Position numbers and translations under genes: made by a program. Shown here one piece after another: positions 43,887 to 60,424 of a stretch of DNA of 64,000 nt. This DNA comes from Bacteroidales bacterium (GTDB taxonomy: Bacteria > Bacteroidota > Bacteroidia > Bacteroidales > VadinHA17). The stretch is taken from positions 218,715 to 282,714 of the forward strand of contig JAGNKY010000001.1 in the NCBI GenBank assembly GCA_017999895.1, read 5' to 3'. How positions within the stretch are numbered: position 1 is the first letter of the stretch; each line of letters opens with the position of its first letter. A model generated the notes under the pieces. That model saw nothing but the letters and a program-made list of their open reading frames with translations, was not told the DNA's origin and did no database searches.

Positions 43887-44314
43887 ATGGCAGATTTAAA
43901 GAATGTATATGGGGCTATCAACAGGGATATGGCTTATGATGCCCTTGAAGACTTTGCGAAGAAATGGGGTGCTAAATATGCCTATGCAATAAAATCCTGG
44001 AAAGATAACTGGGATGAGCTTACGGCTTATTTTGATTACCCACAGGAGATCCGAAAAATCATTTATACCACTAATGCCATTGAAAGCCTGAACGGTTATA
44101 TCCGGAAATACACTAAAACCAAAACTCTCTTCCCTGATGACCAGGCAGCCTTGAAAGCTGTATATCTGGCTATTGCAAATAAAGAGAAAAAATAGACCAT
44201 ACCCATTAAAGACTGGGGAAATGTTATAAATTAATTTATTATTATATTTGGAGATAGATGTGGCGTTATTTAAACCTGGCAACTACCAGTTTACACACAA
44301 ATATTTACAGGCTC
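43887..44314 (+). pseudogene. IS256-family transposase remnant (C-terminal ~115 codons only, internal TAG)
   Basis: YPQEIRKIIYTTNAIESLN...KTKTLFPDDQAALKAVYLAI matches the IS256/mutator C-terminus. TAG at 44193-44195 occupies the position expected for Trp (KK*TIPIKDWG continues in frame). The ~300 N-terminal codons are missing. A possible right end lies near 44314. Confidence 0.75.
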
Positions 44315-47383: not shown

Positions 47384-47435
47384 ATAAAGAGAGGAGGTAA
47401 GCCTATGTGCAGATAATACTATTCCGTGACTTCGG

Positions 47436-47455
47436 TTGCGGCCTGTGAAAGGATA
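47436..47455 (+). promoter_or_regulatory. conserved cassette box 1 (TTGCGGCCTGTGAAAGGATA)
   Basis: The 20-mer occurs 4 times in the window, always 47-48 nt upstream of a precursor-peptide ATG. Confidence 0.6.
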
Positions 47456-47503
47456 CAGCAGGAAAAAGTAAAAAATAAATTGTTTAACTAAAAACATAAA
47501 ATT

Positions 47504-47761
47504 ATGAAAAAATTAAGTAAATTGCAGATTAATCCGGAAAGAATTATGAAGAATGAAGAACTGAAAATTCTGAGAGGTGGAGATTATGACTCTGGTTGTG
47601 GGAATTATACAGAGTGGTTTTGTGATGTGCATTACGATGGAGTTTATGCTTTTTCAGGCATAGCCTGTGGCACACAAGAATATATTTCTGGTGTCTGTCA
47701 ACAACTAAATTATGAATGTTCTTGTACACAAACATGGACTCCCATGCCTATCATTAATTAG
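47504..47761 (+). CDS. double-glycine-leader Cys-rich peptide precursor P1 (26-aa leader + 59-aa core, 6 Cys)
   Basis: The leader MKKLSKLQINPERIMKNEELKILRGG is conserved with three paralogues. The core has 6 Cys and ends in an NYECSC motif. The gene sits immediately upstream of the propeller/C39-ABC/HlyD genes. Confidence 0.85.
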   Translation: MKKLSKLQINPERIMKNEELKILRGGDYDSGCGNYTEWFCDVHYDGVYAFSGIACGTQEYISGVCQQLNYECSCTQTWTPMPIIN

Positions 47762-47874
47762 TATTAAAATTATAAATTGGAGAGTCAGAGGATAGTATTA
47801 ATTAAATTGAGTAAACAACCTCTGGTTCCTTTTCTTCATAATTTCATTTTGAAATTTATATTTTTTGTTCTGCT

Positions 47875-49179
47875 ATGATAAAAAAAATATACATGTTTTT
47901 TCTTCCAGTTGTATTAATGATTTTTCTTGCCCTAAAATGCACTGAATTTTGTATAGACAAAAATATAATAGACAAAAATATAATTGAAGAAATTGACATT
48001 CAGAGTAAAATTGGAAAATATGAAATCGTTAAATTGAGTCAATTTAGTTCTTCAATAAAATATTTACCTCTGATATTAGATGGTGAACATAAAATTAACA
48101 GGATTGTACAAGTAGATTTTACTCCAGACAAGATTCTAATTAGCGATGGGAAAGAATGCCTGTTACTTACTGCAGATGGATCATTTATTAGAAAAATAGG
48201 AGATACAGGCAGGGGACCCGGTGAATATAATATTATTTCAAATATAAGCTTTGGATCAAATAGTACTATTTTTATTCAATCGGCTAATGGTATTTTTCTA
48301 GAGTTTTCTGATGAAGGAACTTTGATTAATATTTCCAAAGTTCCTTCAAATTATTCACATGACTACTATATAGGATCGTGGATACAAGTAAATGACTCAT
48401 TGTTTTTCGGGCAAACTCCAATAACAACAGGGAAGGAATCAACAAAAGCTATATTATTCAATAAAAATGGTAAGATTATTAAGGAATATAAAAACTATAT
48501 TCTGCTTGACAGGCAAATAAGAATGTTTACCACAGATGACAGCGAAGCATCTTATTACTCATATAATGGCAGGATATATTATAAAGAAAAACTGAGCGAT
48601 ACATTATTTTACCTCGACGACAATTTCGATTTATTGCCCAGAATGACTTTTAGGCTGGGTAAATATTTAATGCCTAAAAAATACCGCGAAAACATAAGCT
48701 TTGGTCAATCCTTAAGCCCAAAGTTTAACTACATTTTCATAGAAAATGTTTATGAAACTCAACACTATTTATTGCTGGATTGTGAGTTTAACAGATACTT
48801 TCCGGCAAAACGAATTACACCTAAAATAATACATGGAGTGGAAATCTGGCAAAATACTTTGAATGTTCTGGGATTTTATAATAAACAAAATAGGACTCTT
48901 GTTTTTATTGAGCCAACATCGACAGATAATCCTTTGTACACCTCAGGGCTTTATAATGACATTGATGCCGGTCCAAGATTTTTTCCTATGAAGCAGGTCG
49001 ATGACTCAACTATGGTAATGTGGGTTGATTCTAAACAGCTTAAGGATCATATTGCAAGTGAGGAATTTAAAAATGCCAAGCCTCTATATCCTGAAAAGAA
49101 GGAAGAGTTGAAACATCTGGCCAACAGTCTTAAAGAAACCGATAATCCGGTTTTGATGATTGTACGTTTGAAAGAATAA
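47875..49179 (+). CDS. exported six-bladed beta-propeller protein, paralogue 2
   Basis: 434 aa. Signal/anchor N-terminus, GRGPGEY, NDIDAGPRFFP, tail LKHLANSLKETDNPVLMIVRLKE. A 15-bp in-frame tandem duplication lies at 47956-47985 (DKNIIDKNII). Confidence 0.85.
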   Translation: MIKKIYMFFLPVVLMIFLALKCTEFCIDKNIIDKNIIEEIDIQSKIGKYEIVKLSQFSSSIKYLPLILDGEHKINRIVQVDFTPDKILISDGKECLLLTADGSFIRKIGDTGRGPGEYNIISNISFGSNSTIFIQSANGIFLEFSDEGTLINISKVPSNYSHDYYIGSWIQVNDSLFFGQTPITTGKESTKAILFNKNGKIIKEYKNYILLDRQIRMFTTDDSEASYYSYNGRIYYKEKLSDTLFYLDDNFDLLPRMTFRLGKYLMPKKYRENISFGQSLSPKFNYIFIENVYETQHYLLLDCEFNRYFPAKRITPKIIHGVEIWQNTLNVLGFYNKQNRTLVFIEPTSTDNPLYTSGLYNDIDAGPRFFPMKQVDDSTMVMWVDSKQLKDHIASEEFKNAKPLYPEKKEELKHLANSLKETDNPVLMIVRLKE

Positions 49180-49181
49180 AT

Positions 49182-51479
49182 ATGTCCGAATTTCCTTTCT
49201 TCAAGCAGCTCGATTCCATGGATTGCGGTCCGACGTGTCTGCGCATGATAGCCAGGTTTTACGGGAAATCATATTCATTACAATATCTGCGTTCAAGGTC
49301 ATTTCTTACAAAAGCGGGTGTTTCGATGCTTGGCATCAGTGAGGCAGCCGAGAGCATCGGTTTCCGCACCCGCGGCTACCGCCTCACCTGGGAACAACTA
49401 CGTGACGAGGTACCACTCCCATGTATTGTTCACTGGAGTCAAAGGCATTTTGTCGTAGTGTACAATATCGAGAAGAAGAAGAAAGCTTGGGGCTTGGGGC
49501 GGAGGGCGGAGGGCAGAGTGCGGAGAGCAAAGGATATGGAGCAGGGAGCAAGAGGCGAAGAGCGCAGAGCATACAATTCAGAAACCATAGTTTATGTTGC
49601 CGATCCTGCCTCCGGTCTTCTTAAATACACCAGAGATGAGTTCCTTAAATGCTGGTATAGTACGAAAACCGATGGTGTTCAGGAAGGCGCCGCACTGTTG
49701 CTGGAGCCGTCACCTGATTTCTACCGCCAGGAAGACGAAGAAAAGGGTAAACTTAAATTCACATATCTGCTTGGTTATATAAAGCCTTACAAAAAGTTCA
49801 TCCTGCAGCTTATGCTTGGAATGCTCACCGCAAGCATAATCAGCCTTATATTTCCTTTTCTTACACAATCTCTTGTTGATACCGGTATCGGAAACAGCAA
49901 CATTGCATTTGTCATTCTGGTTCTTGTCGCCCAGTTGATACTTAGTCTCAGCCAGACAGCCAACGGACTGCTGCGTAACTGGATAAGCCTACACGTCACA
50001 AGCAGGATAAGCATCTCCCTTATATCTGATTTTCTAATTAAACTGATGAGACTTCCTATTTCGTTCTTCGATACAAAAATGATCGGAGATATAATGCAAA
50101 GAATAGGCGACCATAACCGCATAAAAACATTCCTTACCGATTCTCTTATCAGTATAATATTTGCCGTTATTACTCTAGTTATGTACACCATTATTATGGC
50201 TACATATAACCTTGCGATACTCGGAGTCTTTCTTGTCGGCAGTGCCTTATACATAGGCTGGGTCGTTCTTTTTCTCAAACGCCGCCGCGAACTCGATTAC
50301 AAGCGTTTTCAGCAAAGCGCGGCTAACCAGAGCAACATAGTACAGCTTATTACAGGGATGCAGGAGATAAAGCTTAACAACTGTGAGAAACAAAAACGGT
50401 GGGAATGGGAAAGGATACAGATAAAGCTCTTTAAGGTAAGCTTAAAGAGTATGATGCTTAACCAGAATCAGCAGCTCGGAGCAGTTTTGATAAACCAGAC
50501 GAAAGATATCTTTATTTCCTTCCTCTCGGCTATGGCTGTCATTCGCGGCGAGATGACCCTTGGTATGATGATGGCCGTTCAGTATATAATAGGTCAGCTC
50601 AATGCACCGATACAACAATTCATCGGTTTTACTCAGGCGGCTCAGGATGCAAGGATAAGCCTCGAGCGGCTTGGCGAGATACACAACCGTGAGGATGAGG
50701 AGAAGCCGGAAGACTATAAGATAAGAGACATTCCTGTAGATAAAGATATAGAGATAAAAAACCTTGTTTTTCAGTACGAAGGTCCTCATTCTGAAAAAGT
50801 ACTGGATGACATTTCGTTGGTTATTCCGGCAAAAGGTGTAACAGCTATTGTTGGAACAAGTGGAAGCGGTAAAACAACACTTATAAAGTTGCTGCTTGGG
50901 TTTTATGCTCCCGTGAAAGGGGGAATCTATCTGAACGGGACTCCTCTCAACCGGTTCAGCCAGAGTGAGTGGCGCAAAAGGTGCGGTGTTGTAATGCAGG
51001 AAGGATTCATCTTTTCCGATACTATTGCCGGAAACATAGGACTGATAGATGAAATTCCCGACAGGGAAAAGATAGACAAGGCATCCGATACGGCTAACAT
51101 CAAAGATTTTATCGAGGGCCTGCCGCTTGGGTATAATACCAGAATCGGCAATGACGGACATGGTCTGAGTACAGGTCAGAAACAAAGGATACTGATTGCC
51201 CGGGCAGTTTATAAAGAGCCTGATTTTATCTTTTTTGATGAGGCAACCAACGCTCTTGATGCAAAAAACGAAAAGACAATTATGGACAATCTGGGCAGCT
51301 TTTTTGAGGGTAAAACGGTTGTGATTGTTGCACACCGTTTGAGCACTGTAAAGAATGCCGATCAGATAGTGGTTCTCGAAAAAGGCAAGATAGTGGAGAA
51401 AGGAACGCATAATGAACTTGTTAAGATGAAAGGGGCGTATTATAACCTTGTGAAAGATCAGCTGGAACTGGGGAATTGA
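49182..51479 (+). CDS. peptidase-C39 domain ABC transporter (bacteriocin-type exporter) carrying an in-frame repeat insertion
   Basis: 765 aa. C39 triad context (QLDSMDCGPTC, HWSQRHFVVV, VADPASG), 6 TM helices, Walker A GTSGSGKTT, signature LSTGQKQR, Walker B IFFDEAT. Confidence 0.92.
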   Translation: MSEFPFFKQLDSMDCGPTCLRMIARFYGKSYSLQYLRSRSFLTKAGVSMLGISEAAESIGFRTRGYRLTWEQLRDEVPLPCIVHWSQRHFVVVYNIEKKKKAWGLGRRAEGRVRRAKDMEQGARGEERRAYNSETIVYVADPASGLLKYTRDEFLKCWYSTKTDGVQEGAALLLEPSPDFYRQEDEEKGKLKFTYLLGYIKPYKKFILQLMLGMLTASIISLIFPFLTQSLVDTGIGNSNIAFVILVLVAQLILSLSQTANGLLRNWISLHVTSRISISLISDFLIKLMRLPISFFDTKMIGDIMQRIGDHNRIKTFLTDSLISIIFAVITLVMYTIIMATYNLAILGVFLVGSALYIGWVVLFLKRRRELDYKRFQQSAANQSNIVQLITGMQEIKLNNCEKQKRWEWERIQIKLFKVSLKSMMLNQNQQLGAVLINQTKDIFISFLSAMAVIRGEMTLGMMMAVQYIIGQLNAPIQQFIGFTQAAQDARISLERLGEIHNREDEEKPEDYKIRDIPVDKDIEIKNLVFQYEGPHSEKVLDDISLVIPAKGVTAIVGTSGSGKTTLIKLLLGFYAPVKGGIYLNGTPLNRFSQSEWRKRCGVVMQEGFIFSDTIAGNIGLIDEIPDREKIDKASDTANIKDFIEGLPLGYNTRIGNDGHGLSTGQKQRILIARAVYKEPDFIFFDEATNALDAKNEKTIMDNLGSFFEGKTVVIVAHRLSTVKNADQIVVLEKGKIVEKGTHNELVKMKGAYYNLVKDQLELGN
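49485..49575 (+). repeat. 13-unit heptanucleotide array embedded in frame in the C39 domain
   Basis: GCTTGGG GCTTGGG GCGGAGG GCGGAGG GCAGAGT GCGGAGA GCAAAGG ATATGGA GCAGGGA GCAAGAG GCGAAGA GCGCAGA GCATACA. It encodes AWGLGRRAEGRVRRAKDMEQGARGEERRAY between the catalytic His and Asp. Confidence 0.85.
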
Positions 51480-51573
51480 TGCTTTTGCCTCTCCCGGCAC
51501 TCCCAAAATGGGGAGGTGTAGCGTGGTATAAGAGAAATAAGCCCCCCATTTTTGGGGGTTGGGGGGCAAAATA

Positions 51574-52899
51574 ATGGGATGTCAAACAGATAAAACTTAC
51601 ATGCCGGAACTTAACAAACAAGAGATTCGCAGTCCTGAGATGCAGGAGGTGATGTCGGGGATACCCGGAAGTATTATTAGATGGGGGTTGTTCATCTTTT
51701 TTGGTATAGTAATAATCTTTATTGCAGGGAGTTACTTTATAAAAAATCCCGAGATTGTTACAGTTCCTGTTGTTATTACCACTCAGAATCCGCCGGTTTC
51801 CATTGTTGCAAAATCAGGGGGCGAGATAGATAAATTATATGTTTCGGAAGGCTCGACGGTCGGGGAAGACGATGTTATAGCATTAATAAGTAACACATGC
51901 AATTATGACGACGAGAAAAGGCTTAAACGGTTCATTTCAGTCTTCGATGATAAGACGGACTGGGCAGTTATTGTTCGTATGCAACAGTCTCCTCCCGACC
52001 TGTCGTTAGGTGAAATACAAAGCGAATATGTCAGTTTTCAGAAAGTATGGAAAGAGATGAAGGATTATCTCGATCAGGCATATATTCCTTCAAAGCTGAG
52101 TCTTCTTGAAGAGCAAATAACCAGAAAGAAAGAATATAACGATGAGCTTGTCCGTCAGAAGGAGCTTCTTACGGAAGATCTTCTTCTTACAAGAAACAGT
52201 TTTGAACGCGATTCCATTCTATTTCATAGGCAGAGTTATTCGATATCGGTAAATGAATTTGAGAAATCGAGGCAGGCTTATATTCAGAAGCAATATTCCT
52301 ACAGTGTTTTCAATGCATCGCTAAAAAATAATGAGGCGGAATTTTTGCGTCTTAATGAAACACGGCTTGACCTGGAGATACAATATGAAAAAGAGCTGAA
52401 GCAATACATTTTTGCTATTGAAGAGTCGCTTCAGTTACTGAGGAGTTCAATATCACAGTGGGAAGAAAAGTATTTGATTAGAAGTCCGGTAGAAGGGAAA
52501 GTTACATTTAACAGGACACGGTATGAGAATCAGTCAATAAAGGTAGGAGAAACTTTTGCTGTGGTTATACCCGGTAATGCTTCTGAGGTTATTGCACGTG
52601 CAGTTATACCTGTGTCCGGATTTGGGAAGGTCAACACAGGGCAGTCTGTTAACATAAAGCTTTCCGGCTTTCCATATATGCAATATGGAGTATTGAAGGG
52701 AAGGATTTATTCCGTATCACAGGTACCCGGTGAGGAAGGTTTTATTGCAGAGATAGAGCTTACCGGGGGAATGACGTCAACATACAGGGAAAAAATAAGG
52801 TTCATTCATGAAATGAGCGGAACAGCCGATATTATTACCGGTAACAGCAGGCTGTTATATAGGTTTATTAAACCGATAAGAAGCATAATAAGCGAATAA
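51574..52899 (+). CDS. HlyD-family membrane fusion/adaptor protein
   Basis: N-terminal TM segment, a long coiled coil, and a C-terminal beta-barrel (GMTSTYREKIRF...GTADIITG), typical of bacteriocin-exporter accessory proteins. The start is ATG 51574 or 51601; the ORF track used TTG 51559. Confidence 0.88.
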   Translation: MGCQTDKTYMPELNKQEIRSPEMQEVMSGIPGSIIRWGLFIFFGIVIIFIAGSYFIKNPEIVTVPVVITTQNPPVSIVAKSGGEIDKLYVSEGSTVGEDDVIALISNTCNYDDEKRLKRFISVFDDKTDWAVIVRMQQSPPDLSLGEIQSEYVSFQKVWKEMKDYLDQAYIPSKLSLLEEQITRKKEYNDELVRQKELLTEDLLLTRNSFERDSILFHRQSYSISVNEFEKSRQAYIQKQYSYSVFNASLKNNEAEFLRLNETRLDLEIQYEKELKQYIFAIEESLQLLRSSISQWEEKYLIRSPVEGKVTFNRTRYENQSIKVGETFAVVIPGNASEVIARAVIPVSGFGKVNTGQSVNIKLSGFPYMQYGVLKGRIYSVSQVPGEEGFIAEIELTGGMTSTYREKIRFIHEMSGTADIITGNSRLLYRFIKPIRSIISE

Positions 52900-52935
52900 G
52901 AAATTATTAAATTTTGCTGTGTTCAAAACGCCTTA

Positions 52936-52995
52936 TGTCCGGTTTTGACCGATATTGTCCGATATTGTCCGATTTTGACCGAAAATTACCGAAAA
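52936..52995. repeat. six tandem degenerate 10-bp repeats (TKWCCGRWWW)
   Basis: TGTCCGGTTT TGACCGATAT TGTCCGATAT TGTCCGATTT TGACCGAAAA TTACCGAAAA, starting 37 nt after the hlyD stop. Confidence 0.8.
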
Positions 52996-53089
52996 TTTCC
53001 CATTATTTTTTGTTGTTATTTGAAACTATTTGCTTAACTTTTTATCCGTTAGCTGTTAAAAGGTTATAGTGAAACATCAATGATAATAG

Positions 53090-53386
53090 GGAACGGATAT
53101 AAGGTTTTCGAGAGTTGACGAACGTCTTAAGCGTATTGCAAATGTTCTGCTCATTAATGCCAGTTTTACCGACAACCTTGGACTATTATACGGTAAAATG
53201 GGGATCGCGATATTTTTATATCAATATAATTTTGAATATAATAGAAAGGCAAGGTCAGAAATATTGGCAGAGGGCATAGGGCTGAGAGCAAAGGGCAAAA
53301 TTATACTGCAATCAACACTGTTCTCCTCGTTCTTTGCCCTCCGTTCTTTGCCCTTAGCCTTCAGCCACTTAACAGAGAGGAGGTAA
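53090..53386 (+). pseudogene. start-less open frame: LanC-like N-terminal fragment fused in frame to heptad element copy B
   Basis: After a TGA TAA TAG triple stop, the frame reads ...RLKRIANVLLINASFTDNLGLLYGKMGIAIFLYQYN... This GLL-G-K-x-GIA-hydrophobic pattern resembles the first helical repeat of LanC-like cyclases. The frame then runs through the repeat. Confidence 0.3.
53266..53370. repeat. heptanucleotide-array hairpin element, copy B
   Basis: The left arm is identical to copy A. The right arm is TCTCCTC GTTCTTT GCCCTCC GTTCTTT GCCCTTA GCCTTCA GCCACTT. About 190 nt (53253-53441) are homologous to 47282-47455. Confidence 0.8.
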
Positions 53387-53421
53387 GCCTATGTGCAGAT
53401 AATACTATCCCGTGCCTTCTG

Positions 53422-53441
53422 TTGCGGCCTGTGAAAAGATA
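53422..53441 (+). promoter_or_regulatory. conserved cassette box 2 (TTGCGGCCTGTGAAAAGATA)
   Basis: 19/20 match to box 1, 47 nt upstream of the P2 ATG. Confidence 0.6.
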
Positions 53442-53488
53442 AAACAGGGAAGAATAAAAATAAATTATTTAACTAAAAATATAAAACT

Positions 53489-53716
53489 ATGAAAAAAATT
53501 GGTAAATTGCACATAAATCAGGATAAGATTATGAAGAATGAAGAACTTTTAGTACTTCAGGGAGGTTATGGAAGTGAGTGTGGTTTCTTGTGTTGTGTTT
53601 ATCTTGGTTCATCATTACTTTACTGCGGTGTCGGTTGTGGTGATAGTGCATTCGGAGCAGAAGCTAATTGTAATATGGAGTTCGGCCAATATGGATATAA
53701 CTGTAAATGCTGGTGA
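53489..53716 (+). CDS. double-glycine-leader Cys-rich peptide precursor P2 (26-aa leader + 49-aa core, 8 Cys)
   Basis: Leader MKKIGKLHINQDKIMKNEELLVLQGG. The core has 8 Cys and ends YNCKCW. Confidence 0.85.
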   Translation: MKKIGKLHINQDKIMKNEELLVLQGGYGSECGFLCCVYLGSSLLYCGVGCGDSAFGAEANCNMEFGQYGYNCKCW

Positions 53717-53802
53717 TTAAACTGAGTTAATTGAATCTCCTGTTATGAACATAAGATATTTAACTTGGTGATTGAAATAATAGGAGACTCTAATTTTAAA
53801 AT

Positions 53803-55071
53803 ATGAAGGAAGCTATTCTTTTTATTGGCTTGTTAATATCAATTATTCGTTGTTCATGCTCTTTTCATGAAAAAACGGATAATAATTTATATCATATTGA
53901 CATAGAAGCTAATATGCATAAAATGCAGCAGATCAATCTTAGTAAGTTTACAAAAAGTATTGAATACCTTCCTATGGAGATAAAGGATAATTTGGCATTT
54001 ACCGGAATTTGGGAGTGTGTGTTTTCTGATAAATACTTTTTAGCTAAAGATATTTCTAAATGTCTGCTTTATGATTATAATGGTAAATTAATTTCTATAA
54101 TCGGGAATCGTGGGCGAGGGCCTGGAGAGTATCAATATGTCAATAATGTGGCATTTGGTTTGAATAAGATTTATTTGCAAAGTTTAAGGGATTTAATGGA
54201 ATACGGTTTTGATGGTTCTTTTCATGATATACACAGGAATTTATTTTTTTTCAAAAGCTATTATGTGGGAAAATGGTTACCTCTGAACGATTCATTGTTT
54301 TTTGGAAAAATAGAGACTATAGTTGGGAATGAACCGTGCAAGGCATTAATATTTGATTTAAACGGGAACACTGTAAAGGAGTTTAAAAACTATATCATTT
54401 TTCAACGGGAGAAACCTTTATCCAGTGAAACGGAACGTCATGCAAATATCTATCGTTTTCAGAATGAGATCTTTTTTAAAGAATTACATAATGATACATT
54501 ATTCTATTTATCAGAACAGTTGGAACTTATACCAAAATATGTAATCGATCTGGGACAATACACTGTTCCAGTTTCGATAAGAAAACTTTTGATTATTCCG
54601 GAGAATAATTATATGACTGTAAATAATGTCTTTCAAACTTCAGATTATTTGTTCCTTGATACAAACTTCGGTTCACATTTTCCTGCTAGAAGATTGACAC
54701 CTATAAAATTACCAATATTTAATATTGAATCATATTATAACACTCAAGATGTATTGGGCATATTCGATAGAAGGAATAAAGAATTAATTTTTTGCAGTCC
54801 AACCAGCACAGATAATCCGTTATTTACTACAGGTTTTTATAATGATGTTGATGCCGGCCCGAGGTTCTTTCCAAAGGTGCAGGTCGATGACTCAACTATG
54901 GTAATGTGGGTTGATTCTAAACAGCTTAAGGATCATATTGCAAGTGAGGAATTTAAAAATGCTAAGCCTCTATATCCTGAAAAGAAGGAAGCGTTGAAAC
55001 ATCTGGCCGACAGTCTGAGTGAGTACGATAATCCTGTACTGATGTTTGTAACTTTCAAGAGTGAAAAATGA
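53803..55071 (+). CDS. exported six-bladed beta-propeller protein, paralogue 3
   Basis: 422 aa. Signal peptide with Cys (IIRCSC), GRGPGEY, NDVDAGPRFFP. The 3' 137 nt are near-identical to paralogue 2. Confidence 0.85.
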   Translation: MKEAILFIGLLISIIRCSCSFHEKTDNNLYHIDIEANMHKMQQINLSKFTKSIEYLPMEIKDNLAFTGIWECVFSDKYFLAKDISKCLLYDYNGKLISIIGNRGRGPGEYQYVNNVAFGLNKIYLQSLRDLMEYGFDGSFHDIHRNLFFFKSYYVGKWLPLNDSLFFGKIETIVGNEPCKALIFDLNGNTVKEFKNYIIFQREKPLSSETERHANIYRFQNEIFFKELHNDTLFYLSEQLELIPKYVIDLGQYTVPVSIRKLLIIPENNYMTVNNVFQTSDYLFLDTNFGSHFPARRLTPIKLPIFNIESYYNTQDVLGIFDRRNKELIFCSPTSTDNPLFTTGFYNDVDAGPRFFPKVQVDDSTMVMWVDSKQLKDHIASEEFKNAKPLYPEKKEALKHLADSLSEYDNPVLMFVTFKSEK

Positions 55072-55110
55072 TAACCAATAGGTAATAGGAAAACAAGGTC
55101 AGGGATATTA

Positions 55111-55208
55111 GCGCAGAGGGTAGTGCATACGAAGCGAAGTAGAGTCCTGAGCATTGAGAGAGCTCAGAAATCAGAGTTATTCTTTGCCCTCAGCTCCCCT
55201 TTGCCCGC
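55111..55208. repeat. heptad element copy C, left part (interrupted by the IS)
   Basis: GCGCAGA GGGTAGT GCATACG AAGCGAA GTAGAGT ... TCTTTGC CCTCAGC TCCCCTT TGCCCGC. It ends at the IS256 target-site duplication. Confidence 0.7.
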
Positions 55209-56560
55209 GAGGGTGTTCAAAAAAGTGTGTCAAAGAGTAAGTAATAAAAAATAGATTTGACACATGGAAAATAAGGAACGAAAACGGACGCCTCGAATAG
55301 AGGAACTGATTCCTGACTCTGAGAGGCGGGAGCAGGTATTAAACAGGTTATACAAAGGGGAACCCATACTTGGGGATGGAGGCATATTTACAGAAATGCT
55401 TCAAGCCTTTGTCAATGCAGCCCTTGAAGGGGAGATGGATCATCATCTGAAAGGGGGAAAAGGTGGATGCCAGGGCAACAGGCGCAACGGTCATACGCAC
55501 AAGGTAGTAAGAAGCACAGCAGGTCCATTTGAAGTTCATACTCCCCGGGACCGGGATGGGGAACACGAACCCATTCTGATTAAGAAATGGGAAAGGGAAC
55601 TTGGGACCGGTCTGGATGATATCATACTGAGTTTATATGCACGAGGACAATCGGTTGAAGATGTTCGGTATCAGTTGCGCAGGTTGTATGGATTAGAAGT
55701 GAGCGCAGGAGCGATAAGTGCGGTTACCGACCGTGTCTGGAGCGAGATTACCCAATGGCAGGAAAGGCCTCTGTCACCATTACAGGTAATAGTTTACCTG
55801 GATGCAATTCATTACAAGGTAAGGGAATCAGGTCAGATTATCTCCAAGGCGATATATACGGTTTATGGGGTAGATGTAAATGGAGAGCGAGATGTACTTG
55901 GGCTTTATCTGAGCGACAATGAAGGCTCGCGACAATGGGGTCTCATCCTTGAAGATATCAAGCGCAGAGGAGTGGATGATGTCTTATTCTTTTGTGTAGA
56001 TGGGCTTAAGGGGTTCAAAGAGGTGATTGAACAGGTATATCCTGAATCGATCCTGCAGCGCTGTATTGTTCATATGGTGCGAACATCGACACGGTTTGTA
56101 AGTGACAAAGATATTAAGGCAGTGTGTTCAGATCTGCGCAAAATTTACTCTTCAGCAGACAGGCAGCATGCGGAAATTGCCATGGAAGCCTTTGGTGAAA
56201 AATGGGGCAAATACCCTGAGATAAAGCCAAAATGGGAAGAGAACTGGGAAGAGTTGATGGCATTTATGGATTATAGCTCCAATATCCGCAGGATGATTTA
56301 TACGACCAATCCAGTAGAAGCTCTTCACCGAATTATGCGCAAGGTCACAAAAACAAAAGGAGCATGGATCAATGACAAGGGATTATTAAAACAGCTATAT
56401 TTAGCACTTAAGTACAACGAAAAAAGCTGGAAACGTAAAGCCTTCAACTGGCTTCCGATCCATAGAGAGCTCATTGAAAAGTTTGGAGACAGGTATGCAA
56501 AATTTGTTGTCCAATAAGTTTACCCGAAAAAGAAAATGACACACTTTTTTGAACATACCC
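55209..56560 (+). mobile_element. intact IS256-family insertion sequence (1352 bp)
   Basis: Terminal inverted repeats GAGGGTGTTCAAAAAAGTGTGTCA (left) and TGACACACTTTTTTGAACATACCC (right), with 19 bp perfect. Flanked by the 8-bp direct repeat TTGCCCGC (55201-55208 and 56561-56568). Confidence 0.9.
55264..56517 (+). CDS. IS256-family (mutator-type) transposase
   Basis: 417 aa and full length. DAIHYKV...CVDGLKGF...IVHMVR...IYTTNPVEALH are typical of Transposase_mut. Confidence 0.93.
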   Translation: MENKERKRTPRIEELIPDSERREQVLNRLYKGEPILGDGGIFTEMLQAFVNAALEGEMDHHLKGGKGGCQGNRRNGHTHKVVRSTAGPFEVHTPRDRDGEHEPILIKKWERELGTGLDDIILSLYARGQSVEDVRYQLRRLYGLEVSAGAISAVTDRVWSEITQWQERPLSPLQVIVYLDAIHYKVRESGQIISKAIYTVYGVDVNGERDVLGLYLSDNEGSRQWGLILEDIKRRGVDDVLFFCVDGLKGFKEVIEQVYPESILQRCIVHMVRTSTRFVSDKDIKAVCSDLRKIYSSADRQHAEIAMEAFGEKWGKYPEIKPKWEENWEELMAFMDYSSNIRRMIYTTNPVEALHRIMRKVTKTKGAWINDKGLLKQLYLALKYNEKSWKRKAFNWLPIHRELIEKFGDRYAKFVVQ

Positions 56561-56763
56561 TTGCCCGCCGTATCCGCCGGCTGGCAGAGAAGGCGGGTGC
56601 CCTCTGCCCTGCGCTCCTTGCTCTCCCGAATCTCGGGACTGCGTCGCTTCGCTCCTTGTGTGCTCTGTGCCAATCTTTCGCAGTCTTTCAATCAGCTACA
56701 GCTTGCAAAGCTTCCGCCTCTTTCCTTCTGCCTATCGCCTTTCGCCTTCTTCCCTGACTTCGG
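56561..56763. repeat. heptad element copy C, right part
   Basis: C/T-rich heptads (TCTGCCC TGCGCTC CTTGCTC ... TGCCTAT CGCCTTT CGCCTTC TTCCCTG). A ~48-nt core (56663-56710) is shared with copy D. Confidence 0.75.
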
Positions 56764-56783
56764 TTGCGGCCTGTGAAAGGATA
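56764..56783 (+). promoter_or_regulatory. conserved cassette box 3 (TTGCGGCCTGTGAAAGGATA)
   Basis: Identical to box 1, 47 nt upstream of the ATG at 56831. Confidence 0.6.
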
Positions 56784-56830
56784 AATCAGGAAAACTGAAT
56801 AAAATTTATTAATTTTAAAAAATAATGGTT

Positions 56831-57073
56831 ATGAAAACACTTGGAAAATTAAAAATCAATCAGGGGAAAATTATTAAAAATGAGGAGCTGGTACAGATAA
56901 GAGGAGGTTATTCTTACTTTATCTGTCATGCTATATGTAGTGGTGGTTTGGATGACTATATCGGTTTCTCATCTACTTGTGATGAAATGGATTGGCAATG
57001 CGCAAGGGGACAATGTATTGAATTTTACAATCAGGTTTTTTATAATTGTGAGTGCGCTTGCGTCAATGGTTAA
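56831..57073 (+). CDS. double-glycine-leader Cys-rich peptide precursor P3 (26-aa leader + 54-aa core, 8 Cys)
   Basis: Leader MKTLGKLKINQGKIIKNEELVQIRGG. The second ATG is preferred over the ORF-track 56825 because it gives the same 26-aa leader and the same 47-nt box spacing as P1 and P2. The core ends YNCECACVNG. Confidence 0.85.
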   Translation: MKTLGKLKINQGKIIKNEELVQIRGGYSYFICHAICSGGLDDYIGFSSTCDEMDWQCARGQCIEFYNQVFYNCECACVNG

Positions 57074-57279
57074 ATCTACTAAATAAAAAATAATATACAA
57101 ATTGTTTAAAAGCTTTTTAGTCGTTTAATGATGTTGAATTATTTAGTGCCATGTCAGCTTAATTAATGTTTTTTATTGCATAAAAATGTTAAAATAAAAT
57201 GTAATATTACAAAAAGAGGAAGAATAATTACTTAAATTGGCATGGCACTTTTACTTAATTAAATTTATCATAGAGTTCG

Positions 57280-58617
57280 ATGTTAAATTTATTTACTAAT
57301 CAATTAAATATAATTAATAAATTAATTTTCCCAATCTGTCTGATTGTCTTATTAATAGCGTCACGCTGCTTATCAAAAAGGCCGATAAATATATTACCGC
57401 TTATTGATATAGAAGCAAATATAAATAATATGCAGAAAGTTTATCTCAGTGAATTTACCGATAATATATGGTATGTTCCTCTTGAAAGTAATCCAGACTT
57501 TTTATTATACTGGACTTATAATAACTTATCGGATTTCTCCGAAAACTATATTTTGTATTCTGATGGAAAGATGTGCCTTCTATATGATAATGAGGGACGA
57601 TTTATCCGACCAATTGGCAAACAGGGCAGAGGTCCGGGAGAATATATAGGAATAGATTATATAGCATTGATAAATGAAAAAATATTTATACATGACTATT
57701 TTACCGATGATCTATTAGAATATAATATTGATGGAACTTTTATAAACCGTAACAAGAGTGGTTTTACTGGACATGACAAATACCGTCTGAGAGATGCAAT
57801 TATGATAAATGATTCAATGATTTTCGGAAATATTCAAAACTATACAGGTCATGAAGAATATAAGGCTTTGATTGTTGATAAAAAGGGGAACATTAAATAT
57901 CCTTATAAAAACTATATTTTCTTTGACTTAAAACCTGGTGTGCCACATGCTCAGGAAATGGGGGAGGGTGCAATATTCTCCAGATTTGGAGAAATAATTT
58001 ACTTTAAAGAACCATTTAATGATACCTTATTCCAGATTGATAATCAATTTCGACTTATACCTTTTTATATTTTTAACTTTGGTAAATACAAGTTTCCACT
58101 ATCAGAAAGGGGTAAAGCCTGGGCCGATATAGATCTTTCTTCATATATTTTTTTGAATGAAATTTTTCAGACAAAAAACTATTTATTTGTTTCATGTAGA
58201 TTAGGTAAGTATTTTCCAGCAAAAAGAATAACGCCTGAAATAATACGTACACCGAGTAATAAAGATTATATCCAATGGTATAACACACAATCGGTATTAG
58301 GTATTTTTGATGAGAGAAAAGGAGATATTGTTTTCTCTGAGCCTACCAGTACAAACAATCACTTATTTACATCAGGGATTTACAATGATATTGATGCAGG
58401 ACCAAGATTTTTCCCCGATAAGATGGTAAATGATTCAACTATGATGATGAAAATCAAATTTGACTATCTTGTAGAACATATTGAAAGCAATGATTTTAAA
58501 TATAATATTCCGAAATATCCTGAAAGAAAGAAAAAACTTGAAATGCTTGTAGATAGTCTGAAAAAGGTTGAATTTGATAATCCTGTATATATGTTTGTAA
58601 CCTTTAAGTCTAAATGA
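57280..58617 (+). CDS. exported six-bladed beta-propeller protein, paralogue 4
   Basis: 445 aa. TM/signal with Cys (IASRC), GRGPGEY, NDIDAGPRFFP, tail DNPVYMFVTFKSK. Confidence 0.85.
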   Translation: MLNLFTNQLNIINKLIFPICLIVLLIASRCLSKRPINILPLIDIEANINNMQKVYLSEFTDNIWYVPLESNPDFLLYWTYNNLSDFSENYILYSDGKMCLLYDNEGRFIRPIGKQGRGPGEYIGIDYIALINEKIFIHDYFTDDLLEYNIDGTFINRNKSGFTGHDKYRLRDAIMINDSMIFGNIQNYTGHEEYKALIVDKKGNIKYPYKNYIFFDLKPGVPHAQEMGEGAIFSRFGEIIYFKEPFNDTLFQIDNQFRLIPFYIFNFGKYKFPLSERGKAWADIDLSSYIFLNEIFQTKNYLFVSCRLGKYFPAKRITPEIIRTPSNKDYIQWYNTQSVLGIFDERKGDIVFSEPTSTNNHLFTSGIYNDIDAGPRFFPDKMVNDSTMMMKIKFDYLVEHIESNDFKYNIPKYPERKKKLEMLVDSLKKVEFDNPVYMFVTFKSK

Positions 58618-58660
58618 AATTCCCTTTCTTCAAGCAGCTCGATTCCATGGATTGCGGCAA
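58614..58660 (+). pseudogene. orphan 5' end (15 codons) of a C39-ABC transporter gene
   Basis: ATGAAATTCCCTTTCTTCAAGCAGCTCGATTCCATGGATTGCGG encodes MKFPFFKQLDSMDCG. Positions 58623-58657 are 35/35 identical to 49194-49228. It overlaps the propeller stop, as the intact gene does, then runs directly into heptad element D. Confidence 0.8.
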
Positions 58661-58828
58661 GACCTTTCTCTGCCAATCCTTCGCTGTCTTTCAGCCAGCT
58701 AAGGCTTACAAAGTCTGAGCTCTGTGCTCCTTGCCCTCAGCCCTTCGCCCTGTGCCCTGCGCTCTGTGCTTCGTGCCTCACGCCTCTCGCGTCACGCCTC
58801 ATGCCTCACACCTTTTCCGTGCCTCCGA
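58661..58828. repeat. heptad element copy D (13 consecutive NNGCYCT units at 58717-58807)
   Basis: GAGCTCT GTGCTCC TTGCCCT CAGCCCT TCGCCCT GTGCCCT GCGCTCT GTGCTTC GTGCCTC ACGCCTC TCGCGTC ACGCCTC ATGCCTC, preceded by the core shared with copy C (58668-58713). Confidence 0.85.
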
Positions 58829-58848
58829 TTGCGGCCTGTGAAAGGATA
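58829..58848 (+). promoter_or_regulatory. conserved cassette box 4 (TTGCGGCCTGTGAAAGGATA)
   Basis: Identical to boxes 1 and 3, 47 nt upstream of the ATG at 58896. Positions 58829-58926 match 56764-56861 at 97 of 98 nt. Confidence 0.6.
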
Positions 58849-58895
58849 AATCTGGAAAACTGAATAAAATTTATTAATTTTAAAAAATAATGGTT

Positions 58896-59126
58896 ATGAA
58901 AACACTTGGAAAATTAAAAATCAATCCTGAAAAGTTGATGAAAAATGAGGAATTAATGACATTGAGAGGGGGATATAGCGGTGGTATAGTATTATGGTGT
59001 TTAGCTGTTGGGCCTACTTGTGTTCTACATAATATGCCCGGAAATTGTGATTGGGTATATAATGACACCATTTGTAGAATTGAATGTCCTAATTATATAG
59101 GAGTTTATTACTGTTTTTCAGAATAG
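58896..59126 (+). CDS. double-glycine-leader Cys-rich peptide precursor P4 (26-aa leader + 50-aa core, 6 Cys)
   Basis: Leader MKTLGKLKINPEKLMKNEELMTLRGG (second ATG preferred). The core has 6 Cys. Confidence 0.85.
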   Translation: MKTLGKLKINPEKLMKNEELMTLRGGYSGGIVLWCLAVGPTCVLHNMPGNCDWVYNDTICRIECPNYIGVYYCFSE

Positions 59127-59147
59127 GAGTTGATTTAAGATTAATTT

Positions 59148-59176
59148 AAAGAAGGGGGACTTCAACTCCCTTCTTT
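59148..59176 (+). terminator. hairpin between P4 and propeller 5 (possible partial terminator/attenuator)
   Basis: AAAGAAGGG-N11-CCCTTCTTT followed by AATTTT, 22 nt after the P4 stop. Confidence 0.45.
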
Positions 59177-59188: not shown

Positions 59189-60424
59189 ATGATAATAAAA
59201 ATAAACATGAAGATAAATATGAAGATAAATATGGGGACATTTGATAAGTTATTATCAAATGTTTTAATTCTTTCATTATTGGCAATTAGCTGTAGAACCT
59301 CAAGTACTAAGGCCGACAGTCATATAATCACTTTTAACTTAAATAAGCTTCCCAAAATTTCAGAAGTAAAATTATCAGATCTTGGATTTACTGACATTGA
59401 ATATATCCTACTGGAAACAAATGATCAAAGCATGGTCCCAATGATTAACAATGTATTATTTGGGGATAACTACTTTTTAACACTTTTTTTTACGAATATA
59501 CTTATGTATAGATATGATGGAAAGTTTGTTACAAAAATAGGAACAGAAGGAAGAGGCCCGGAAGAGTTTACTGTTGTTCATGATGTAGATATCAATAGAA
59601 ATAATCAAAAAATTTATTTGGCTGATGGGTGGCAAAAGAAATTTTATGTTTATTCAGAAAGCGGGGGATTTGTTAATACATTTCGGACTTATATTCAAGG
59701 CAATATTTCCTTTAGATTCACTGAAGATGGAATTTTATGCTACAATAAGAATTCACTTGGGAATGTTGAAAACAGTTATACTTTGATTGATACTTCAGGT
59801 AAAATCATAAAAAATTTCCCTAATAAGTATCTTTGGAATTTAAGACAAAAAAATACAGTCATTTTTAATGAGAACCTTTTTTATCGTTTTAATAACAAGC
59901 TTTATAAGAAAGAGATTTATTCTGACACTATATTTATTTTCGAACATTCTTATTTTAAACCTCACTTAATTATTAAGCATGGGGATAAATTATTAACCAC
60001 GAAAGCACGCTCAGAATATGACCCAAGAATACTTTCAGAAAAGTTTATATCACAAAAGAATCTTTTTGAATTTGGTGATTATATTTATTATGAGTTTACT
60101 TATGATTCTAAAAGAAATGAGGGTATTACTTTTAAAGGTTTTATTGGTTCAAAAAAAGATAACACTCAGTTCTTAATTAATTCTGAAAATGGTATAGTTA
60201 ATGATCTGGACGGTGGGCCTGGTTTTTGGCCTAAAACTATAAAAGATGACCGCACGGTTGTTTCATGGGTTGAGGCTTTGAAATTAAAGAAATATATTGA
60301 TTCAGATTTGTTTAAAAATTCAACTCCCAAATACCCTGAAAAGAAGAAAGAGCTTGAAAAACTTGCAAACAGTCTTAAAGAGACCGATAATCCGGTTTTG
60401 ATGATTGTACGATTGAAAGAATAA
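59189..60424 (+). CDS. exported six-bladed beta-propeller lipoprotein, paralogue 5
   Basis: 411-aa ORF. The likely true start is ATG 59231 (MGTFDKLL...LLAISC lipobox). GRGPEEF, NDLDGGPGFWP, and a tail near-identical to paralogue 2. Confidence 0.85.
   Translation: MIIKINMKINMKINMGTFDKLLSNVLILSLLAISCRTSSTKADSHIITFNLNKLPKISEVKLSDLGFTDIEYILLETNDQSMVPMINNVLFGDNYFLTLFFTNILMYRYDGKFVTKIGTEGRGPEEFTVVHDVDINRNNQKIYLADGWQKKFYVYSESGGFVNTFRTYIQGNISFRFTEDGILCYNKNSLGNVENSYTLIDTSGKIIKNFPNKYLWNLRQKNTVIFNENLFYRFNNKLYKKEIYSDTIFIFEHSYFKPHLIIKHGDKLLTTKARSEYDPRILSEKFISQKNLFEFGDYIYYEFTYDSKRNEGITFKGFIGSKKDNTQFLINSENGIVNDLDGGPGFWPKTIKDDRTVVSWVEALKLKKYIDSDLFKNSTPKYPEKKKELEKLANSLKETDNPVLMIVRLKE

Follow-up and report, generated by a model that had tools for sequence, protein, structure and literature searches.

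Bacteroidetocins have been proposed as class IIf bacteriocins of the Bacteroidetes, Cys-containing peptides that carry a double-glycine (GG) leader and act against Bacteroidales (PMC6671954). They depend for full activity on a neighbouring thiol oxidoreductase and are accompanied by a C39-ABC exporter (PMC6671954). The mature peptides kill related Bacteroidetes via BamA (PMC8546649). The locus described here occupies 43.9-61.7 kb of a 64,000-nucleotide stretch of DNA (the window; positions 218,715 to 282,714 of contig JAGNKY010000001.1, assembly GCA_017999895.1) from a Bacteroidales bacterium. It encodes four GG-leader precursors, P1-P4, each followed by the gene of a β-propeller lipoprotein, together with an exporter and an oxidoreductase that contains a VKOR domain. 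It is best explained as a rearranged version of a widespread Bacteroidales system in which secreted disulfide-rich peptides are carried in interchangeable cassettes.

Toxin-immunity arrays with displaced or orphan modules are familiar from contact-dependent inhibition (CDI) and Rhs systems and from the orphan immunity islands of Bacteroidales. The GG-Bacteroidales radical-SAM (rSAM) system combines a TIGR04149 precursor with TIGR04148/TIGR04150 rSAM proteins and a TIGR04157 glycosyltransferase (PMC4573289, PMC8939145). Glycocins of the sublancin/glycocin F family, which include members with three disulfides, use a peptidase-containing ABC transporter (PCAT), cluster-encoded thioredoxin-like proteins and a glycosyltransferase (GT) (PMC12457901). 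Literature searches with DUF5128, DUF4934, VKOR + C39, PCAT + Bacteroidetes + cysteine-rich and other terms returned no description of the present system, and its peptide family, its propeller partner and its C39-like/VKOR fusion are all without a prior description found in the literature.

Precursors with a fixed leader and variable cores

Scans of the open reading frames (ORFs) of the window against Pfam and NCBIfam define a single co-directional locus in which every gene lies on the + strand. The order is IS256 fragment, propeller 0, VKOR/thioredoxin protein, P1, propeller 1, C39-ABC exporter and HlyD, followed by P2, propeller 2, an intact IS256 transposase, P3, propeller 3, P4, propeller 4 and propeller 5. 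In the window's ORF list the four precursors, the six propellers, the VKOR fusion, the PCAT and HlyD are all intact. The precursor genes were placed by the ORF list, a leader scan and alignment:

47504..47761, + strand: P1 precursor, 26-aa leader MKKLSKLQINPERIMKNEELKILRGG and 59-aa core with 6 Cys, 85 aa in total
53489..53716, + strand: P2 precursor, 26-aa leader MKKIGKLHINQDKIMKNEELLVLQGG and 49-aa core with 8 Cys, 75 aa in total
56831..57073, + strand (second ATG; the ORF opens at 56825): P3 precursor, leader MKTLGKLKINQGKIIKNEELVQIRGG and 54-aa core with 8 Cys, 80 aa
58896..59126, + strand (second ATG; the ORF opens at 58890): P4 precursor, leader MKTLGKLKINPEKLMKNEELMTLRGG and 50-aa core with 6 Cys, 76 aa

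A first-pass annotation, made from the letters of the window, had claimed that the leaders align without gaps and end in GG at residue 26 if the second ATG is used for P3 and P4. The alignment gives exactly this, with 26 aa and 13 invariant positions, and public gene calls use the same starts (P0001, the P3 sequence of 80 aa; P0004, a close P4 variant of 76 aa). The core lengths of 59, 49, 54 and 50 aa and the Cys counts of 6, 8, 8 and 6 that it listed are reproduced by the ORF translations, as is a C-terminal Y-x-C-x-C motif in P1-P3 (NYECSC, YNCKC and YNCEC). What it took for a conserved secretion signal is a leader of the double-glycine type, ending in RGG or QGG and carrying Leu or Ile at -4, Leu, Val or Met at -7 and Met or Ile at -12, and the locus supplies an intact C39-ABC exporter and an HlyD adaptor to go with it. 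A six-frame scan with a regular expression finds exactly four such leaders in the whole window, those of P1-P4.

Alignment against GG-leader families, a check that had been suggested at that stage, brings P1 to 24.9 bits with the TIGR04149 leader model, just short of the cutoff of 25. P3 (16.3 bits) and P4 (13.7 bits) score lower and P2 gives no match. P3 also has a weak match to the ComC family (16.4 bits, cutoff 20.4). The NCBIfam label 'rSAM-modified RiPP' (ribosomally synthesised and post-translationally modified peptide) probably does not apply to P1-P4. Searching the PDB by sequence with the P3 and P4 cores yields chance matches alone (E > 0.1).

An even number of cysteines as a family rule

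A profile built from the four peptides collects 85 homologues, nearly all of them from metagenomes and from metagenome-assembled genomes (MAGs) of Bacteroidales. Their leader is nearly invariant (MKKLxKLQINxEKLMKNEELxTLRGG) and their cores are unrelated. The leader pattern, GG with hydrophobic residues at -4, -7 and -12, is kept in 85 + 136 homologues. Run against a library of 1.84 billion cluster representatives, the profile search reaches 930 clusters at 50% identity with E <= 1e-3, 472 of them with E <= 1e-10. The exact sequence of P1 is present on 13 independent metagenome contigs.

The claim that the cores always hold an even number of Cys had been drawn from P1-P4. Four even counts by themselves are weak evidence, expected once in 16 by chance. 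The family at large carries the point: the count is even in 114 of 121 cores that are non-redundant at 60% identity (binomial p = 2.5e-26), and in 105 of 114 cores taken from an independent representative library. As parity holds in both sets, it is a rule of the family and not a coincidence of four sequences. Among the 121 cores, 80 have 6 Cys, 19 have 8, 12 have 4 and one has 10; five have 7. Cys positions also vary less than the rest of the core: over 188 core pairs with 40-90% identity, their columns show 89% conservation and all others 42%. Three to four disulfides per core are likely, given that parity is kept across the family and that the system encodes its own VKOR-thioredoxin protein, whose redox Cys are invariant.

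Other features are shared across the family. Tyr opens the core in 96/121 and 96/114 members of the two sets. Composition is dominated by Cys (13%), Gly (12.5%) and Tyr (8.8%), the median core length is 47 aa, and 96% of the cores are net negative with a median charge of -4.

Scanning a genome collection with the leader alignment yields 76 related loci. They come from MAGs (uncultured Bacteroidales, Rikenellaceae, Prolixibacteraceae, Marinilabiliaceae and Lentimicrobiaceae) and from one isolate, Puteibacter caeruleilacunae JC036. Hidden Markov models (HMMs) made from the window proteins find 155 propeller, 33 VKOR fusion, 40 ABC and 24 HlyD ORFs in these loci, and a leader HMM finds 124 leader peptides. 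The recurring order is VKOR fusion, peptide, propeller, ABC and HlyD, with further peptide-propeller cassettes alongside. No two-component or other regulator is consistently linked to the system across the 76 loci. An RND-type transporter and a second membrane-fusion protein recur downstream of HlyD in 12-14 loci (L015, L025 and others), and a TolC-like outer membrane factor lies near the system in two.

Propeller lipoproteins as the partners of the peptides

Each peptide gene of the window is followed by the gene of a 411-445-aa DUF5128/DUF4934 protein, and two further members of the same family lie in the locus:

44342..45514, + strand: propeller 0, an orphan DUF5128 lipoprotein of 390 aa (DUF5128 87.4 bits, DUF4934 34.8 bits; lipobox-like N-terminus FLVLFTFSC)
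47875..49179, + strand: propeller 1, partner of P1, 434 aa (DUF5128 64.2 bits; structural model and Foldseek match to 4RAA, given below)
53803..55071, + strand: propeller 2, 422 aa (DUF5128 47.7 bits; repeat family D1)
57280..58617, + strand: propeller 3, 445 aa, a member of alignment A4 and paralogous to propellers 1 and 2
59189..60424, + strand: propeller 4, 411 aa (DUF5128 91 bits, DUF4934 27.3 bits)
60555..61706, + strand: propeller 5, 383 aa, the second propeller after P4 and without a peptide gene of its own (DUF5128 80.1 bits, DUF4934 73.7 bits)

The five paralogues scanned (propellers 0, 1, 2, 4 and 5) all match Pfam PF17170 (DUF5128) at 47.7-91 bits, above the cutoff of 22.9. The pairing extends to the related loci. 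A propeller gene lies downstream of 102 of the 114 peptides that have enough 3′ sequence, at a median gap of 117 nt. Conversely, a peptide gene lies upstream of 94 of the 129 full-length propellers away from contig edges, which leaves about 27% as orphans. About one third of these orphans stand directly behind another propeller, as propeller 5 does, and the peptide-propeller-propeller arrangement is found in other loci as well. Propeller 0 has zero leader peptides nearby in the six-frame leader scan of the window.

Most members of the propeller family begin with a signal peptide followed by Cys and are therefore lipoproteins. An AlphaFold2 (AF2) model, computed from a 116-sequence alignment, is six-bladed, with a predicted local distance difference test (pLDDT) score of 92.1 and a predicted template-modelling score (pTM) of 0.87. 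The best PDB match in Foldseek is 4RAA, the uncharacterised exported protein BF0058 of B. fragilis (E = 1.9e-17, target-normalised TM-score 0.76). Eukaryotic NHL domains and a DUF4221 protein come next, and enzymes of the same fold stand far down the list. A PDB sequence search with the propeller returns NHL repeats alone. Conserved polar residues mostly belong to a per-blade repeat, an xDSxxF-like motif in alignment A4. Judged by its modelled structure, the protein resembles a scaffold for binding.

In the propeller 4 ORF the signal peptide is preceded by three tandem copies of a short repeat (59189-59235, ATGAAAATAAAT, MKIN MKIN MKIN), and the start codon of this ORF is uncertain. In locus L048 (8045-8440) a copy of the upstream motif described below is followed by a decayed leader, MKKLNKIKLISGISLNERELIQLRGGY, and then by an intact propeller gene; it looks like an orphan propeller in the course of losing its peptide. 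NVEALA-type peptides, which accompany propeller genes in Bacteroides, occur neither in the window nor in the related loci. PADLOC defence models match none of the proteins scanned with them, which were P1, propellers 0, 1 and 5 and the VKOR fusion.

Cassette boundaries and the movement of cassettes

Identity between the four cassettes of the window changes from segment to segment. Protein identities are as follows:

Leaders: 62-73%
Cores: 19-26%
Propeller bodies: 26-41%
Last 90 aa of the propellers: 42-82%

The cores are thus as hypervariable, relative to their leaders, as had been asserted. At the DNA level the leader and about 250 nt in front of it are 80-100% identical. A sharp drop to 35-45% follows where the core begins, and values remain between 40% and 55% along the propeller. 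For cassettes 1 and 2 they climb back to 90-100% over the final ~250 nt of the propellers; the corresponding range for the end of propeller 2 against propeller 1 is also given as 85-100%. The first-pass annotation took the Y-x-C-x-C motif of P1-P3 as a sign of common descent followed by rapid divergence, and the conserved signal with its diversified payload as the pattern of antagonistic or signalling peptides under diversifying selection. Each part of its interpretation that concerns the sequence is upheld, and the related loci add to its support. Point divergence is indeed seen; beyond it, recombination and displacement of cassettes are also visible.

Core and propeller vary together. Over 89 unique pairs, core identity correlates with propeller-body identity (Mantel r = 0.55, p = 0.001). 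Where propellers are more than 75% identical the cores are always at least 64% identical, and where cores are at least 50% identical the propellers are always at least 44% identical. From this correlation it follows that core and propeller are inherited, and possibly co-adapted, as a unit.

Displacement has left traces of its own. A short copy of the exporter gene's beginning stands behind a propeller to which the exporter gene is no longer attached:

58618..58657, + strand: 5′-end stub of the ABC exporter gene, right after the propeller 3 stop (39/40 nt identical to 49189-49228; repeat family D15)

These 40 nt encode EFPFFKQLDSMDCG. In five related loci (L036, L077, L033, L050 and L047) ORFs of 100-180 aa behind propellers match only the N-terminal part of the ABC protein, its C39 region; in the first four of these loci the fragments measure 125-180 aa. 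To judge from their sequence, the ABC 5′ fragments are probably footprints of displaced cassettes that formerly stood in front of the exporter gene. The short ABC N-terminal ORFs after propellers may be displaced-cassette remnants or stand-alone C39 domains.

Metagenome contigs that are near-identical to the window (98.6-99.9% identity) carry strain-level rearrangements. One of them (L002 8311-11486, a 98.6% identical strain, compared with 47504-49164 and 58714-58932 of the window) has cassette 1 followed directly by another cassette and not by ABC/HlyD. The upstream region of that second cassette is an 88% match to that of P4, a case of strain-level cassette reshuffling.

A two-hairpin element upstream of the peptide genes

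The conserved DNA in front of the leaders contains a structured element. All four peptide genes have TTGCGGCCTGTGAAAGGATAAA about 60 nt before the ATG, and this element recurs in front of peptide genes from many other MAGs. A covariance model (R1) places its copies in the window as follows:

47397..47472, + strand: two-hairpin motif copy 1, 5′ of P1 (82.7 bits)
53383..53458, + strand: two-hairpin motif copy 2, 5′ of P2 (75.4 bits)
56726..56800, + strand: two-hairpin motif copy 3, 5′ of P3 (60.0 bits)
58813..58865, + strand: motif copy 4, hairpin part only, 5′ of P4 (49.0 bits, model positions 24-76)

The fold consists of a variable 7-bp stem and a 4-bp stem around the invariant loop UGAAAKGAUAAAU (44 distinct copies, alignment A6). 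Paired cells make up 88%, against 23-47% with slid partners, and 7 of 11 pairs change on both sides. The covariation score of 0.247 compares with 0.133 in shuffles and is reached by 0 of 500 shuffles. Across 891 kb the covariance model detects 69 copies, every one of them on the strand of the peptides, and the four of the window stand only before P1-P4. In the related loci a leader ATG follows 24-122 nt downstream of 64 of 65 copies. The element, which is present before about half of the peptide genes in these loci, is read here either as RNA, forming a structured 5′ leader, or as a regulatory site linked to the cassette.

A second type of upstream element (GGCAAAGATAAAGTTTTAAnCGGATTGGCAGCCAGGCC..ATGAAATCCG) stands before about half of the peptide genes (L010, L026, L032, L034 and others) and shares with the two-hairpin type the GCRAAGATAA box alone. 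The invariant loop (GGAUAAAUC, e.g., 47447-47459) is complementary at 8 of 9 positions to GAUUAAUCC, the (Q)INP codons of the leader (e.g., 47528-47536); in sequence so rich in A/U the match may be accidental, or else the two may pair over a long range. No Rfam family matches the upstream motif. The only Rfam matches in the region are MIR529 on a GC-rich hairpin, a chance match, and a FopS-like match with E = 0.97. The latter (59111-59180; 28.6 bits, below the gathering score of 56) overlaps the 3′ end of P4 and a terminator-like hairpin behind it and is probably chance too.

Predicted export and oxidation machinery

One exporter and one adaptor are encoded between cassettes 1 and 2:

49182..51479, + strand: PCAT exporter of 765 aa with intact C39 Cys/His/Asp (Pfam Peptidase_C39 105 bits, ABC_membrane and ABC_tran)
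51559..52899, + strand: HlyD-family membrane fusion/adaptor protein (TIGR01843 102.5 bits, below cutoff; Pfam HlyD_3)

The C39 motifs of the exporter align as DCGPTC, HFVVV and ADP. Its NCBIfam scores, 435 bits for TIGR03796 and 400 bits for TIGR01193, are both below the cutoffs. By homology to characterised PCATs, the protein would cleave precursors after GG and export the cores. The C39 domain carries a GC-rich low-complexity insert (window 49470-49590), which varies from 0 to ~70 aa in homologous exporters and has intergenic relatives at 47283-47382, 53256-53355, ~56540-56720 and ~58700-58800. Exporter calls of 717 and 765 aa on near-identical contigs reflect a choice of start codon and not an indel, the DNA being 99.9% identical over its full length.

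The oxidoreductase is a larger fusion than its first description implied:

45587..47224, + strand: fusion protein of 545 aa with a degenerate C39-like domain, TM0, VKOR, TM5 and a DsbA/BdbD-like thioredoxin domain (Pfam, hhalign and AF2/Foldseek)

The first-pass annotation called this protein a VKOR fusion. The VKOR (residues 181-305, Pfam 54.2 bits) and thioredoxin (Thioredoxin_4, residues 379-525, 47.5 bits) domains are present; a C39-like N-domain and an extra transmembrane (TM) helix had been overlooked. All 78 sequences compared keep the six redox Cys: the loop pair C211/C219 and two CxxC motifs, one at 289-292 in the VKOR part and one at 402-405 in the thioredoxin domain. The fusion is encoded next to peptides in 33 related loci. 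By homology to characterised bacteriocin systems that join a PCAT to a thiol oxidoreductase, it would be expected to form the disulfides of the cores. The VKOR-thioredoxin part finds nothing in the PDB by sequence at E <= 0.01.

The N-terminal 130 residues of the window protein have zero Pfam matches. Even so, hhalign matches them, in register, to the C39 domain of neighbouring exporters (E = 6e-4), and about twenty homologues of the fusion carry a precomputed match to PF03412. In Foldseek the AF2 model, with a pLDDT of ~90 for the N-domain, is closest to PCAT1, followed by BdbD, ScsC and DsbA proteins. The position of the catalytic Cys is an invariant Asn8 (motif EDNT), and His76 is invariant as well (78 sequences). 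Unable to cleave, the C39-like domain is presumably a leader-binding module.

The membrane topology adds to this picture. In the Synechococcus VKOR structure five TM segments place the N-terminus in the cytoplasm and the thioredoxin domain in the periplasm. The present fusion shares the loop Cys pair, the membrane CxxC and the thioredoxin CxxC with VKOR-thioredoxin oxidases, which replace DsbB, and is predicted to depart from their five-TM topology. A conserved hydrophobic helix, TM0 (approximately residues 145-168), is inserted between the C39-like domain and the VKOR core and brings the predicted number of membrane segments to six. The redox parts (VKOR Cys loop, CxxC and thioredoxin domain) would then share one side of the membrane with the C39-like domain. 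The C39-like N-domain has no signal peptide. Lys and Arg in the short loops average 4.5, 2.0 and 4.0 on the thioredoxin/N-domain side against 0.9, 0.3 and 0.4 on the opposite side (78 sequences), and by the positive-inside rule the redox side is predicted to be the cytoplasm. This arrangement suggests leader-directed formation of disulfides on the precursor before export. Leader-guided oxidative folding in the cytoplasm by an inverted VKOR is put forward tentatively, as a possibility well short of even odds. A literature search for VKORs of inverted topology produced nothing citable. Lanthipeptides are exported through PCAT-type transporters in an already cross-linked state. Glycocins likewise leave the cell cross-linked through transporters of this type (PMC12457901).

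Genes lost from the window and neighbouring features

In the near-identical contigs L001, L002 and L006 a GT4 gene precedes the VKOR gene, with overlapping stop and start. Also in front of the VKOR gene are a small ORF and genes for a weakly LanC-like protein and for a GT2 with two domains. Of 15 loci that extend far enough, 12 have LanC-like/GT2 genes no more than 6 kb ahead of the VKOR gene, and the GT4 family occurs in 20 related loci. The L001 GT4 is a close relative of TIGR04157 (glyco_rSAM_CFB), scoring 301.7 bits (E = 8e-90) against a cutoff of 400. For the GT2 of the relatives a PDB search gives TarS, GalT1 and chondroitin synthase as the nearest solved structures and lists no SunS-type enzyme. 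A 67-aa ORF that lies ahead of the LanC-like gene of L001 was considered as a precursor and ruled out, as its translation has no GG leader. The canonical system may add sugars or other modifications to its peptides.

The window retains only one end each of the GT4 and LanC-like genes, found by tblastn with the proteins of L001:

45522..45587, + strand: 3′-end remnant of the GT4 gene, its last 22 codons (residues 397-418 of L001 GT4, 77% identity)
53093..53260, + strand: 5′-end remnant of the LanC-like gene, codons 5-60 (75% identity)

Identity with the metagenome relatives begins at a rearrangement breakpoint at ~45525. With the relatives' proteins as queries, tblastn finds no intact GT gene in the window. 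Since the GT and LanC-like genes are reduced to remnants, the peptides made here would carry disulfides only, barring copies elsewhere. The stretch 3′ of HlyD at 52926-53217 is 94.6% identical to the L001 region upstream of the LanC-like gene and contains direct repeats, TGTCCGAT(A/T)TTG(T/A)CCG, around 52935-52995; it may be a duplicated promoter or operator of the canonical operon.

Two insertion-sequence features complete the locus, which is flanked by housekeeping genes for lysyl-tRNA synthetase on the left and 2-oxoacid dehydrogenase E2 on the right:

43887..44195, + strand: partial IS256-type transposase gene, a 102-aa ORF that stands leftmost in the locus (like the C-terminal part of the intact IS256 by eye)
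55264..56517, + strand: intact IS256-family transposase between cassettes 2 and 3 (Pfam Transposase_mut 302.6 bits; NF033543 360.7 bits)

Possible functions of the cassettes

By its gene content, the pairing of peptide and propeller, the regularities that run through the family, the footprints and the domain architecture of its proteins, the locus is a polymorphic cassette system. In the mechanism proposed for it a cassette would comprise the 5′ two-hairpin element, a precursor gene and the gene of a cognate six-bladed NHL-like propeller lipoprotein, and one machinery would be common to all cassettes. The C39-like/VKOR/thioredoxin fusion would oxidise the even-numbered Cys to three or four disulfides, the PCAT would cut after GG and export the core, and the HlyD-type adaptor would complete the exporter. 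The peptides would be narrow-spectrum antagonists resembling bacteriocins, and the propeller lipoprotein, as a cassette-specific binding partner, would protect the producer and thus provide immunity. Cassettes would be gained and displaced by recombination, with the leader/5′ element and the propeller 3′ end/ABC 5′ end serving as homology arms. The reading of the peptides as bacteriocin-like antagonists with the propeller as their cognate immunity protein, argued from genomic logic only, is given a probability of about 0.5. The fuller scheme is more doubtful and is offered as a conjecture: in it a dead C39-like domain would bind the leader, a VKOR inverted by TM0 would turn its quinone-linked redox relay to the cytoplasm and oxidise the tethered core there, ahead of cleavage and export by the PCAT, the propellers would form a new structural class of immunity proteins against peptide bacteriocins, exchanged along with the core by recombination, and the 5′ RNA would co-regulate the cassettes.

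Several observations weigh against antagonism with propeller immunity. With a median charge of -4 the cores are acidic, which most membrane-active bacteriocins are not. Propeller paralogues show strong conservation over their C-terminal ~90 aa, which could have a shared catalytic or docking role. The correlation between core and propeller could be plain co-inheritance of linked genes and not co-adaptation. A survey of 2012 had not yet found β-propellers among the immunity proteins of polymorphic toxins (PMC3482391). Immunity is in any case not a given in this phylum, as bacteroidetocin producers do without an immunity protein (PMC6671954). Deletion of the canonical LanC-like, GT2 and GT4 genes, together with the IS256 copies, means that the locus may be partly decayed, and the presence of these genes in the canonical system means that the peptides may normally carry further modifications.

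The propeller might instead be a cassette-specific maturation, chaperone or release factor for peptides that are still PCAT-exported and disulfide-bonded; it could, for instance, escort the folded peptide or set it free at the outer membrane, or catalyse an additional modification. Its gene stands between the precursor and exporter genes in one co-directional string, and its conserved C-terminal module (42-82% identity, against 26-41% for the body) and the many conserved polar residues of the protein might form a common site for docking or catalysis. Enzymes with six blades, among them virginiamycin B lyase and Drp35, do occur in the Foldseek list, but far down it; the top structural neighbours are binding domains, and the polar residues mostly repeat from blade to blade, as is typical of a structural blade signature. 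About 27% of the propellers are orphans or stand in peptide-less arrays, which is expected of immunity genes and not of maturases, and a general release factor need not diverge in step with each core. On balance such a role is unlikely, at roughly the level of a serious minority view. A ligand-receptor function is less probable again. Here the pairs would serve signalling or kin and self recognition in the manner of pherotypes: GG-leader peptides exported by PCATs include pheromones, P3 has its weak ComC-family match, NHL propellers are ligand-binding domains, the cores are acidic and not cationic, and specific co-varying pairs are what ligands and receptors would also produce. The propeller, however, has neither a transmembrane nor a signalling output domain, and the loci have no consistently linked regulator. 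Several cassettes and orphan propellers per genome fit an arsenal with its immunity genes better, since a pherotype is usually one per strain.

The remaining two explanations concern the locus as a whole, and both are improbable. A decaying, non-functional remnant, whose regularities would be historical only, could account for one intact IS256 and one fragment, for the GT4, LanC-like and ABC remnants and for the rearrangements between strains of 98.6-99.9% identity. It sits poorly with the intact ORFs of the precursors, six propellers, VKOR fusion, PCAT and HlyD, with an identical P1 on 13 independent metagenome contigs and with a 5′ motif that is intact before all four peptide genes, and merits only slight credence. 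Least credible of all is that P1-P4 are TIGR04149 precursors matured by a radical SAM/SPASM enzyme. The leader matches to TIGR04149 (24.9, 16.3 and 13.7 bits) and the closeness of the canonical GT4 to TIGR04157 point that way, but every one of these leader matches is under the cutoff and P2 has none. No ORF of at least 150 aa in window 1-39,000 contains CxxxCxxC, and the ORFs of the locus at 43.9-61.7 kb are otherwise assigned. Across the 76 loci no rSAM-like family recurs, and it is the VKOR-thioredoxin fusion that adjoins the peptide instead.

If antagonism with propeller immunity is correct, the system represents a large uncharacterised family of disulfide-rich secreted peptides in environmental Bacteroidales, with rules that are simple to state: a fixed leader, Tyr first, 6 or 8 Cys, an acidic charge and an obligatory propeller partner. 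The small set of known peptide toxins of Bacteroidota would grow, a natural library of compact disulfide scaffolds would become available, and a β-propeller lipoprotein would join the repertoire of candidate immunity proteins. The C39-like/VKOR/thioredoxin fusion makes leader-directed, possibly cytoplasmic, RiPP-like oxidative folding a testable question. The cultured carrier Puteibacter caeruleilacunae JC036 (locus L076) makes experiments feasible.

Comparison with described systems

The bacteroidetocins are the closest characterised system. They share with the present locus the phylum, a GG leader, paired Cys, an oxidoreductase and a C39-ABC exporter. Their leader has 15-16 aa and is unrelated in sequence to the 26-aa leader found here. 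Their mature peptides, disulfide-bonded secreted products of 42-48 aa, mostly have 4 Cys and are somewhat basic, whereas those of the window would have 49-59 aa and 6-8 Cys and are acidic. Bacteroidetocin loci contain a gene for a 5-TM protein and have no immunity gene, propeller or HlyD. Here the 5-TM gene is absent, and the locus has propeller partners, HlyD, a C39-like domain on the oxidoreductase and multi-cassette arrays.

The GG-Bacteroidales rSAM system has in common with this one the type of leader, the C39-ABC exporter, HlyD and, in the canonical locus, a GT4 related to TIGR04157 at a score below its cutoff. It differs in that the present locus has no radical SAM or SPASM gene, that a C39-like/VKOR/thioredoxin fusion here takes the position of the maturase, that the cores have even numbers of Cys and that a propeller follows each precursor. 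Glycocins resemble the present system in their leader-bearing precursors, the PCAT, a cluster-encoded thioredoxin-like oxidoreductase and, as far as the canonical relatives are concerned, GT genes. They belong to Firmicutes, use a GT2 of the SunS/GccA type and often have an extra glycosylated Cys, whereas Cys counts here are even. The GT2 of the relatives is a two-domain protein accompanied by a GT4 and a LanC-like protein, and all three are missing from the window. A glycocin identity was rejected because the GT2 of the relatives is not SunS-like in the PDB search and because the window has no GT gene.

In its organisation the locus recalls the CDI/Rhs-type arrays. Both have a conserved 5′ part and a variable toxin/immunity part separated by a sharp break in identity, and both leave footprints of displaced modules and orphan partners. 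In contrast to the C-terminal domain of a large protein that is the toxin in CDI/Rhs systems, the toxin candidate here is a small peptide exported by a PCAT, and its partner is a β-propeller lipoprotein of ~400 aa.

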